Of a stretch of DNA of 64,000 bases, positions 24,884 through 28,358 are shown in pieces. The notes under the pieces are model-generated. The model saw only the letters and a program-made list of their open reading frames with translations. It did not search any database and was not told the DNA's origin. A program made the position numbers and the translations under genes. Within the stretch, counting starts at the first letter, position 1. Each line of letters opens with the position of its first letter. Source of the DNA: a virus (taxonomy: Duplodnaviria > Heunggongvirae > Uroviricota > Caudoviricetes); the IMG/VR virus record IMGVR_UViG_2513237251_000009; one strand, given 5' to 3'.

Positions 24884-27800
24884 TCAGCTGATACTGATGC
24901 CTGCGGTGGCTTTCTTCATCACCACAACCAGCAAATCGCTGATACTTGCTGTGGGATACCAGTTATTCACCAGCCATGCTGACACCGAAAACTCCAGCGT
25001 CATGTGACCGTGACCGGCAGGCATATCAATAACGCCACTGTAAATCAGCGTATTATCCAGCGCGGTACGGTTATAAATTTCAGCACCGTTTTTCCGCACT
25101 ATCAGACGGCATGAGGAGTAAATATCAGTATGCTCTCTCTCTCATGTTTAGCGCCGCTGAATGCCACCGCCGGAATAACAATCTGCCGGTCAAACGGCTG
25201 ATCGTCATAAACCCTGACGGTAATGGTCCCTGATGGCCACCGTTCCGGTGCACGGGAGTCCCGGGGGAAAGCTTTGCCCACTGTTTTAACGAGATCGCCT
25301 TCAATCTGGTTCGCGGACAGTTTTCCCAGAACCCGACAGTTCTCGTTAATCGTGACGTTGTTGAGCGTCCCGGAGTTCGCATTCACACTGCCACTGATAT
25401 CCGCATTTTTAGCGGTCAGCTTTCCGTCTGATGTCAGGGAAAATGCCGGAGGATTGCCGCCACTGGTAATGGTGGGAGCCGTCAGATATTTCAGGAACAC
25501 TTCATTCATAAATATCTGATCGCCCTGACCAACAAACATCGGCTTTGTGTTGCCATTCGCAGGATTAATCATCGCAATCCTGTCTGCCGCCAGCAGCACC
25601 TGACTCTGCATTCCTGCTGGCGTATTCTCAATACCGGCACCGATACCCGCAATATAAAGGCGTCCGTCCTGCATCTGCTGCAGTTTCACGGCCCACATGC
25701 TGTTCAGGTTATTATTTGTATCAACCTGAACTTTCTGTATCTGCTGGATTGCCGCACTCTGATTTTCCAGTTTTTTATTGACGGTCTGCGTGATTTCATT
25801 GCTGACATTCGTAATGGACGTCCTGATTTCAGCCAGGTCCGGCGCAAGCTGACCGTTATCAATCTGCGTCCACAGCTCCTGGGCCAGATGTGTTTTCCCG
25901 ATTTCTCCTTTGAAAAAATCCAGGTAACCTTCCGCATCATCGCTCGCCCGACCGACAGCCTCCACGAATGCCGATTTGCCAACAGTATTCACACTGCGGA
26001 TATAAAAATAATAATCATGGCCCGGTTTGATATTGATACTGGCAGCTATCCAGTACAGCGCCGAGCCAAGATAGCGGGCTGCGGTTTCAACCTGCCTGAT
26101 ATCCGCAATCCGCTTTTCCGAGAACCAGAACTCAAACTGTACCGTCGGGTCATAAACGGCAAGATGCGGCGTGGCGGTTATCTGAAAATAGCCCGGCGTC
26201 AGCTCAATCCGCGACGGTGCTGCCGGTGCGGCAATCCGGAAGGTGGTGGTGGCAGGTTCACCCTGCTGGCCATAGCTGTTTATCGCCCGCACCGTCAGGG
26301 TGTATTCCCCGAGCGGCAGGCCGCTGAAACGGTGCTCCGTGTCTGCGGTGATGGCGGTGGTCACCAGTCTGGCATCCGTTCCCTTACCACTGGTCAGGCG
26401 CAGACTGAAGCGCACGCCCTTCACCACCCGCGGCGTGTCCCATTTAGCCTGCGCCAGATACTGGCCGTCAGCTGCACTCACCTCCACCGTCAGGTGCTGT
26501 ACTGCCGGTGGGATGACGCTGTTCAGGGAACCTGACTGCGGCTCAAAGCGGGCACCGTTATCCACGATGGCTTCTTTTTCCGGTACGTGCTGCACCGCCG
26601 TGATGGCAAAGGTGCCGTCCGTGTTTTCCCGGACGGAGACACAGCGGAACAGGCGACGGCACAGTGACGGCAGGGAGAGTCCCCACACCCCGTATGTCTC
26701 CACACCATCAGGCAGGGTACTGACCTGTATCCGGTCCGGCGCGGGGTGTGCGGTGATGTCCACACTCACCGGCTTACCGCTGCCGTTAATCAGGTTCACC
26801 GTGGCGGCACCGGTCTCCGGCAGTGTCACCTCACGGTCCAGCGTCAGGGTGCGGCTGGCGGCATCGATGGACAGGACACGTCCGCCGGTCATGGTCCCGG
26901 CATAGTCGTTATCACAGATTTCAATAATGTCACCGGGTGTGTGACGCAGCCCCTGTGACCCAAGCGTGAAATCCACCGTCTGCGTTTCCAGCAGTCCGGT
27001 CTTTATCACCCACAGCCCGGCACGGTGGGCCTGACCGCGACTGGTGCAGCCGAACGCATCCATCTTCAGCAGGTTGCGTCCGTAGCGCAGTATGGCTTCC
27101 GGGTCTTCCACCAGTTCCGTGGAGGTCTGCCAGCCGTTCTGCGGGTCGGTGTAATTCACCTCCACCGCCGTGTGGCGGTCCTTCAGGGCGCTGAAGCTGT
27201 AGCGAAACCCCACGCCGTTATCATCCACCACCACATCACTGCTGGTGTAGGCCACACCACATCTGACGGACGGTCCTGCACAAACGTCAGCGTCTGCCCG
27301 TTCCATACCGGCATACAGCGCATCGCCGAGCAGAAATCACTGAGAACGTCCCACGCCTTACGCTGTTGTGACAGGTACGCATTGAAAGTCATCCGCGGCT
27401 CTGTGCCCCCGAAACCATCCGGGACCGTCTGGTCGCAGTACTGCGCAATGGCATACAGCGCCCACTTGTCCACATCCGCCGCCCCCAGGCGTTTTCCCAT
27501 TCCGTAGCGCGGGTGGGTCAGCATGTCCCACAGGCACCAGGCAGGGTTGTTGCTGTATGCCGGTTTCAGGCTGCCGTCCCAGATGCCGCTGTACGTGCGT
27601 TTTTCCGGGTCATAGTTTGACGGTACCTGGATGATGCGACCGCGGATATGGTAGTTCACCGTCATCTGCTGACCGCCAAACTGCTCCGCATCCACCTGCA
27701 GCCCCACAATCGCCGTGTTCGGGTAGCACTGTTTCACATCGATGATTTCGGTGTATGACGACCAGAGCGTCTTATTCTGCAGCTGGTCCGAGGTGCTGTC

Positions 27801-28358
27801 CGCTGTCTCCCGGACCATCCGGATGTTAAAGGGCCGCTCAGGCAGATTATCCAGAATCACCGACGCCAGAAACTGCGAGGTGGTCTTGCCGTTAATGGTG
27901 ACATCCTTTTCCGTCACCCAGTTACCGTTACGCTGCAACTGAATCAGCAGTCGGACAGAAGAGTGATTACGGTCGCCCTTTGAGGTGGTCTCCAACAGTG
28001 ACTGCACCCCGAAGGTGACCCGCAGGCGGTCAATGTTCGCGGACGTAATGGTGCGCGTCACCGGTTTTGCCTTCGTCACTTCCACGCCCAGTCCGGTTTC
28101 AGCTCCGGAGGACTCAAAGCCTTCCGGTGGTGTCTGCTCCTGCTCCCCGGCACGCCAGACCGCGGTCACACCGTGTATCACGGGATTGCCGTCCGTGTCC
28201 GTCAGTGGGGTTTTGTTCACCAGAATACTCTGCAGTCCCTTCACCGGACCTTCTATCGGTCCCTCACCAATCGCATCAATCACACTCATCATCTGCGTGG
28301 ATTTGAGATTATCCTTCGCCTCACGAGGCGTGTGTGCCTTACCGCCACCTTTTCCCAT
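24884..28358 (-). pseudogene. J: Host specificity protein J (tail tip), disrupted by two frameshifts
   Basis: Lambda-J-like sequence in three frames: 27183-28358 (MGKGGGKAHTPREAKDNLKSTQ...), 25102-27306, 24884-25099; breaks at about 27250-27254 and at a CT/GA dinucleotide run 25133-25143. Confidence 0.8.

Follow-up and report, generated by a model that had tools for sequence, protein, structure and literature searches.

Two heritable frameshifting indels in gene J of the defective prophage Sp12, very probably combined by recombination

Based on the analysis reported here, we consider it very probable that gene J (tip attachment or host specificity protein) of the defective prophage Sp12 of Escherichia coli O157:H7 was inactivated by two real, heritable insertions or deletions (indels) of the slippage type that were combined in one gene by recombination. 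The gene lies on the minus strand of a 64,000-nucleotide (nt) stretch of viral DNA (IMG/VR record IMGVR_UViG_2513237251_000009; hereafter the window), where it runs from the ATG at 28358 to the stop at 24884 as a pseudogene of 3475 nt; intact relatives have 3474 nt. Window positions 24700-28600 match E. coli O157:H7 Sakai (NC_002695.2, 2213733-2217633) at 100% identity, with J at 2213917-2217391, and a 15.9-kb Sakai stretch around J equals the window base for base. The same 3.9-kb region is 100% identical in at least 29 further complete genomes among the matches listed, mostly labelled O157:H7 or O157. In Sakai, the region is annotated as "prophage Sp12, lambda-like phage" and contains three consecutive minus-strand coding sequences (CDSs) named "phage host specificity protein" (ECs_2235, ECs_2234 and ECs_2233) between tail assembly gene I and lom. 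Because this annotation belongs to identical DNA, the element called "Prophage B" in an earlier description of the window made from its sequence alone (the original prediction) is Sp12. On the identical sequence of strain 8368, the Prokaryotic Genome Annotation Pipeline (PGAP) reports a single pseudogene, "gpJ: phage attachment tail tip protein J, frameshifted".

The broken reading frame of J

The original prediction had described a lambda-J-like sequence continuing through three frames. A tblastn search of the window with the intact J homologue of PPompW_EH1992 recovered exactly this arrangement as a single collinear match across three frames, with amino acids (aa) 1-370 read in frame -3 (28358-27249), aa 371-1081 in frame -2 (27249-25117) and the C-terminus in frame -1 (25279-24899). 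The minus-strand open reading frames (ORFs) at 27183-28571, 25102-27306 and 24884-25099 abut or overlap at both break sites. When J was aligned with MAFFT to the intact 3474-nt J genes of PPompW_EH1992 and vB_EcoS-783R2, a comparison with intact relatives that had been proposed as a check, exactly two indels separated the sequences.

Lesion 1 is a deletion of one base at 27250-27251 (minus strand), in codon 370 and inside the Phage-tail_3 domain (PF13550, aa 330-498). The coding strand reads TGG CC^T ACA at this site, versus TGG CCC TAC in the same haplotype elsewhere, and the plus strand has GG instead of GGG. In the letters of the original prediction, which had placed an apparent single-base loss near 27250-27254, the site is GTGGTGTGGCC^TACACC, and the gapped coding strand is GTGTGGCC-TACACC; the alignment thus bears out the predicted loss and assigns the missing base to 27250/27251. 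Lesion 2 is an insertion of two bases at 25133-25143 (minus strand), where a (GA)5G run of 11 nt stands against a precursor (GA)4G run of 9 nt encoding H-E-R-E-H. It follows codon 1075, within PF12421 (aa 1027-1157), the receptor-binding domain at the C-terminus, and places residues 1076-1157 out of frame. Direct reading of the run on the coding strand, CATGAGAGAGAGAGC, gives 11 nt. The length of the GA/CT run had therefore been stated correctly, as had 9 nt as an in-frame length; the other length that had been offered, 12 nt, does not hold, the ancestral run having 9 nt.

Adding one base at site 1 and removing one GA at site 2 in silico restores an ORF of 1157 codons with no internal stop. 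The frame is broken by these two indels and nothing else. The repaired protein contains the full set of gpJ domains, i.e. FNIII-A_GpJ (86-207), Phage-tail_3 (330-498), Ig_J (609-712), Ig_J_second (714-816), Phage_Tail_Tip (870-998) and Ig_GpJ_C (1027-1157), and PF24801, PF13550, PF24421, PF24489, PF09327 and PF12421 all exceed their curated cut-offs in the 1157-aa translation. Its alignment with lambda gpJ (PDB 8iyk) spans the full length at 1794 bits, and its domain order, FNIII-A, Phage-tail_3, two Ig_J domains, Phage_Tail_Tip and Ig_GpJ_C, is that of lambda gpJ (PDB 8iyk/8xci). Unlike lambda gpJ, Sp12 J has its frame interrupted twice, by a -1 indel and by a +2 indel, has 1157 aa after repair versus 1132 in lambda, and is closer in its repaired C-terminal third to other solved J fragments (9wca, "A8 gpJ 713", E 1e-185). 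The single uninterrupted ORF of about 1130-1160 codons that is characteristic of a functional gpJ is absent. Because the sequence is distributed over three frames by two indels, with the first stop after 391 codons, the gene is a pseudogene of the lambda gpJ/TipJ family and not a functional member.

Three fragments result. Fragment 1 (27183-28358, minus strand; Sakai ECs_2235) consists of native residues 1-370 followed by 21 out-of-frame residues and a stop, giving 391 aa. Fragment 2 (25102-27249, minus strand) corresponds to the middle of J, with native residues 371-1075 read in the second frame, and ends with 10 aberrant residues before a TGA at 25104-25102; Sakai ECs_2234 covers 25102-27231 of it, starting at an internal ATG at 27231. 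Fragment 3 (24884-25132, minus strand) holds the last 82 native codons and the stop in the third frame, with Sakai ECs_2233 (24884-25099) starting at an internal GTG. Lesion 1 would cut the protein to 370 native residues, within the hub-forming Phage-tail_3 domain, while lesion 2 alone would deprive the receptor-binding domain of its last 82 residues. Because of the role of the affected domains in lambda gpJ, each lesion should by itself abolish function. A functional tail tip cannot be made from the Sp12 J locus.

Recurrence of the lesions, precursor alleles and mosaic structure

The repeats affected, CC/CCC and the GA run, are short repeats of the kind in which some platforms miscall length, and sequencing or assembly errors in an intact gene, a possibility left open in the original prediction, would produce the same picture. 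However, Sakai and at least 29 other complete genomes among those listed, which come from different laboratories, years and sources, share the 3.9-kb region at 100% identity. Counted by best place per record, the exact 81-mer over lesion 1 is present in 245 complete E. coli genome records and the exact 81-mer over lesion 2 in 215 complete-genome records, all of the listed ones among the latter being O157:H7, O157 or unserotyped; the whole 3.9-kb segment is found at 99% identity or more in 50 records. The 79-mer with the 9-nt run (CAT GAG AGA GAG CAT) is exact in 894 records of many serotypes, and a version of the lesion-2 81-mer with a 13-nt run has 0 exact matches in complete-genome records. 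Relatives have alternative states that are consistent with their lineage, with CCC and the 11-nt run in Z885 and PNUSAE151637, and CCC and the 9-nt run in DEC5B and 493/89. Moreover, the -1 lesion is annotated independently in the VT1-Sakai phage record, where J is divided into H0006 and H0007 with the remark "truncated protein by a mutation". Because both lesions recur over independent assemblies, sequencing error is excluded as an explanation, and the chance that the true gene is intact is practically nil. This agrees with the original prediction, which had regarded the dinucleotide event as something other than a typical homopolymer sequencing error.

The states from which the lesions arose are preserved in relatives. 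In O55:H7 CB9615, the 9-nt run lies in an intact 3474-nt J beside lom, the tail fibre gene and three nleG-family genes. The repaired 674-nt 3' segment of Sakai J aligns with 1 mismatch and no gap to five genomes, i.e. O55:H7 DEC5B, O157:H- 493/89, F3113, TX 265-1 and the second J copy of PV15-279; in DEC5B and 493/89, the matching J belongs to the Sp12 orthologue, with nleG7 downstream and an open J ORF of 3477 nt. Thus, the O55:H7 and O157:H- orthologues are intact at both lesion sites, and lesion 2 is a one-unit expansion from (GA)4G to (GA)5G. The simplest account of this expansion is replication slippage on the resident allele, at a time when O157:H7 had already split from O55:H7 and sorbitol-fermenting O157:H-. 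A PPompW-type GAG AAA GAG was rejected as the precursor at site 2, as it needs a substitution in addition to the insertion and the simpler AGA precursor is present in CB9615, DEC5B and 493/89; BLAST identity bands cannot by themselves tell AAA from AGA alleles, since a pair of 1-nt gaps and a single 2-nt gap receive equal scores. At site 1, TGG CCC TAC is found in the same flanking haplotype in Z885 and PNUSAE151637 (O157:H7, Sp12 context) and in an O26 strain; lesion 1 is therefore a C3 run shortened by a single C.

Each lesion also exists alone. The +GA insertion without the -1 deletion is found in the Sp12 orthologues of the O157:H7 strains Z885 and PNUSAE151637, and the -1 deletion without +GA is found in J of the Stx1 prophage Sp15 (VT1-Sakai), which reads GAG AAA GAG at site 2. 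Sp15 J has the identical -1 lesion and shows 0 differences to Sakai Sp12 J from nt ~860 to 2896; 59 differences lie in the first ~860 nt and 27 beyond nt 2896, and the Sp15 prophage is located at yehV and not at ynfA. In the comparison of Sakai Sp12 J with Z885, the many differences all lie no further than nt 2849, and the two sequences agree throughout from nt 2850 onwards. These first and last differences delimit a junction of 47 nt at 25463-25509 (minus strand; J nt 2850-2896). The sequence 5' of it is identical to the -1-only allele type (Sp15 J from nt ~860; a hybrid prophage of ATCC 43888 from nt 1), and the sequence 3' of it is identical to the +GA-only allele of the Sp12 orthologue in Z885. 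By this switch in identity, Sakai Sp12 J is a recombinant, in which a 5' part bearing the -1 deletion was joined to the resident 3' part bearing +GA.

Based on these alleles, we suggest the following order of events. The +GA expansion would have occurred on the resident Sp12 J allele after the split from O55:H7 and sorbitol-fermenting O157:H-, and the -1 deletion would have been present on a J segment common to Sp15. Homologous recombination between paralogous prophage tail regions would then have united the two lesions in a single gene of the Sakai-type lineage. At present, J would be undergoing neutral decay in an already immobile prophage, which is retained because it carries nleG effector cargo. 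Sakai Sp12 has window positions 28728-30368 (I, K and the 3' part of L), a stretch missing from the Sp12 orthologues of Z885, DEC5B and 493/89, and the upstream M/H region of these orthologues shares only ~96% identity with that of Sakai; the exchange extended past J.

No observation speaks against J being a pseudogene, but two points weigh against so simple a history. Over its first ~300 nt, Sakai J does not match either Z885 or Sp15, and therefore at least one further source is needed; this third, PPompW-like source contributed the first ~300 nt of J together with I-K-L, and more than one exchange is required. Also, the single argument for a transfer of the -1 deletion from an Sp15-type J to Sp12, rather than in the reverse direction, comes from record counts. 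With 245 vs 50 records, the -1 81-mer is found about five times as often as the Sakai-type Sp12 segment, which mildly favours the former direction. As for the remaining tail genes, the tape-measure gene is frameshifted in DEC5B and 493/89, and I, K and L are intact in Sakai Sp12 and deleted or shortened in Z885, PNUSAE151637, DEC5B and 493/89. This suggests that the Sakai tail module was partly rebuilt through recombination although J stayed broken.

Other prophages support the exchange of J segments. J of ATCC 43888 is identical to Sakai Sp12 J from nt 1 to 2896 and has the -1 lesion only. Its prophage (NZ_CP041623.1, 4.011-4.070 Mb) has at one end an Sp12 backbone that abuts ynfA and is 99.3% identical to window 32139-64000, and at the other end the cargo of an ompW-site prophage (nleA, nleH1-2, nleF, espM1 and a truncated ompW). 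By these mixed ends, it is a derived Sp12/ompW-prophage recombinant, and its J is ruled out as the parental -1-only allele. The crossover was inside J, 5' of nt 2897 and probably within the block of nt ~2000-2896 that is identical in the J alleles compared. The hybrid indicates inter-prophage recombination or a large chromosomal rearrangement with J as the homology, consistent with the prophage-mediated large chromosomal rearrangements in O157:H7 with which PMC8743559 is concerned. In PV15-279 (O157:H7), the +GA segment is present in the J pseudogene of another prophage, beside tccP2, and this J has in addition an independent +GT dinucleotide duplication at J nt ~629 (AAACAGTGTGC vs AAACAGTGC). 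Thus, J segments with their lesions clearly move between paralogous prophages.

J is also unusual in strains 26_141088 and 2017C-4109, where it is ~600 nt longer (4080 nt in 26_141088) and annotated by PGAP as two partial pieces. This J looks chimeric or partly duplicated, with a divergent C-terminal region.

Alternative readings and significance of the lesions

In simple-sequence-repeat contingency loci, too, a short tandem repeat within a CDS changes by one unit and shifts the frame, and the (GA)n tract could be such a phase-variation locus, switching J on and off by repeat slippage. Indeed, the tract is a dinucleotide repeat within coding sequence, the loss of one GA unit would open J in Z885-type strains where the expansion is the sole lesion, and the +GT in the PV15-279 copy is a second dinucleotide duplication. 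However, the run shows only two lengths, with 9 nt in 894 records, 11 nt in 215 and 13 nt in none, rather than the length polymorphism of a switching tract, and a single historical event suffices for the 11-nt run, as every listed record with it is O157 or unserotyped. Five repeat units are short for a hypermutable contingency tract. Unlike contingency loci, Sp12 J has one fixed expansion only together with a second, independent lesion, which is not reversible by repeat change and also blocks J in the Sakai type; in Z885-type prophages, the tail module is degraded anyway, with L truncated and K and I deleted. We therefore consider a contingency locus extremely unlikely. It is likewise highly unlikely that the GA tract acts as a rare reversible switch in the many O157:H7 strains with +GA only, or that selection to disarm tails and keep effector cargo, and not neutral hitch-hiking, favoured the repeated spread of J lesions between paralogous prophages by recombination, of which the -1 deletion is found in Sp12, Sp15 and the Sp12/ompW-prophage hybrid, and +GA in Sp12 and a tccP2 prophage.

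Two further explanations would make the broken frame functional. Lambdoid tail operons have one programmed -1 frameshift, at G/GT, and full-length J might likewise be made by programmed ribosomal frameshifting or transcriptional slippage. Yet two different corrections would be required, for a 1-nt loss and a 2-nt gain, and neither site (G UGG CCU ACA; CAU GAG AGA GAG AGC) contains an X XXY YYZ slippery heptamer. Both deposited phage genomes inspected as well as the O55:H7 and O157:H- genomes have a single open J CDS; in-frame alleles are the common state and the frame change is not conserved, leaving this explanation with a negligible probability. Alternatively, J could have been split into separately functional subunits, e.g. 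an N-terminal hub and a receptor-binding fragment, in keeping with the three Sakai CDSs that each have their own start codon. By contrast, both breaks fall within Pfam domains (PF13550, aa 330-498; PF12421, aa 1027-1157), the internal starts are merely the first ATG or GTG in each frame, the relatives have single ORFs and PGAP sees one frameshifted pseudogene. There is next to no chance that the fragments are subunits, and inactivation of J by two inherited indels remains the reading that we favor.

This outcome fits what is known about Sp12. In Asadulghani 2009 (PMC2669165), the host specificity, repressor, integrase, general recombination, portal and head functions of Sp12 are all listed as defective (Table 1), and no circularization, replication or packaging of Sp12 is reported (Table 2), in agreement with the original prediction that the prophage probably cannot make infectious tails. 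In Sakai, the integrase of Sp12 is annotated as a pseudogene (intR) beside ynfA. J thus resembles other pseudogenes of defective (cryptic) prophages in that its lesions are fixed and inherited, other essential phage genes are broken and the prophage does not excise (PMC2669165). The conclusion about the tail defect is right but over-determined: because integrase, repressor, recombination, portal and head are also defective, the J lesions are not what immobilises Sp12. In this sense, the J pseudogene is ordinary, being already annotated and published in a prophage known to be dead. What is new here is the exact description of the lesions, the allele history with the recombinant double lesion and the population counts; a literature search by the locus tags ECs2233, ECs2234 and ECs2235 found no paper.

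On their own, the lesions have little importance, as they add one more defect to a prophage known not to excise, replicate or package. They do provide a worked example of how short-repeat indels kill prophage tail genes and of how recombination between the near-identical tail modules of O157 moves and stacks such lesions. J also serves as homology for larger rearrangements, e.g. in the Sp12/ompW-prophage hybrid of ATCC 43888. For genome scanning, the case illustrates that a dinucleotide-run frameshift in a finished genome is quickly settled by comparison of independent assemblies.

The tail operon, the I-J spacer and other features of the window

In the Sakai and PGAP annotations, J has the position in the tail operon that is expected for the gpJ family, after H-M-L-K-I and ahead of lom and the side tail fibre gene, and the synteny H-M-L-K-I-J-lom-stf of lambda is also found in Sp12. 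Tail assembly gene I (ECs_2236; 28700-29281, minus strand) is upstream of J, and lom (Ail/Lom outer membrane protein, ECs_2232; 24217-24816, minus strand) is directly 3' of it, as is typical of lambda. Collagen-like Gly-X-Y repeats form a long region of the side tail fibre gene (22929-24158, minus strand); PMC3368898 deals with collagen-like proteins encoded by prophages of pathogenic E. coli. Beyond the tail fibre gene, at 18700-22500, the Sakai annotation places the cargo end of Sp12, with an insertion of ISEc8 (IS66 family) and three nleG-family effector pseudogenes (nleG7, nleG3 and nleI/nleG2-4).

On the lambda map, I and J abut. In Sp12, unlike lambda, a non-coding spacer of 341 nt (28359-28699) separates these two tail genes, and relatives have 240-342 nt. 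On its minus (coding) strand, at ~28497-28458, the spacer contains a perfect 14-bp GC-rich hairpin followed by a U-run. The spacers of Sp15 and O55:H7 have a different hairpin and T-run at the same place and, therefore, the structure is conserved and the sequence replaced. On the plus strand, a promoter-like TTCACA-16-TATAAT (28563-28590) is followed by a terminator-like hairpin (28670-28686), and these elements could give rise to a predicted antisense RNA of ~100 nt. A 22-codon ORF in the spacer is not conserved. The spacer has no match in Rfam (at gathering and E-value thresholds) or in the papers on the AgvB and Pas small RNAs (sRNAs); an identity with a known sRNA was rejected on this ground, and AgvB and Pas are located in the Q/lysis "moron" region. 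The spacer could be a terminator within the late operon, the 3' end of an sRNA or a moron remnant.

Elsewhere in the window, Rfam matches at the gathering threshold are found at 16196-16312, 5164-5338, 54754-54928, 12548-12599, 61774-61825, 50640-50812, 621-870 and 51592-51838. They comprise one ALIL pseudoknot (a frameshift element of the IS3 family), two sok antitoxin RNAs, two DicF, one STnc100 and five prophage tRNAs in two clusters, a set that reflects the two lambdoid prophages of the window, Sp11 and Sp12, which are near-duplicates.

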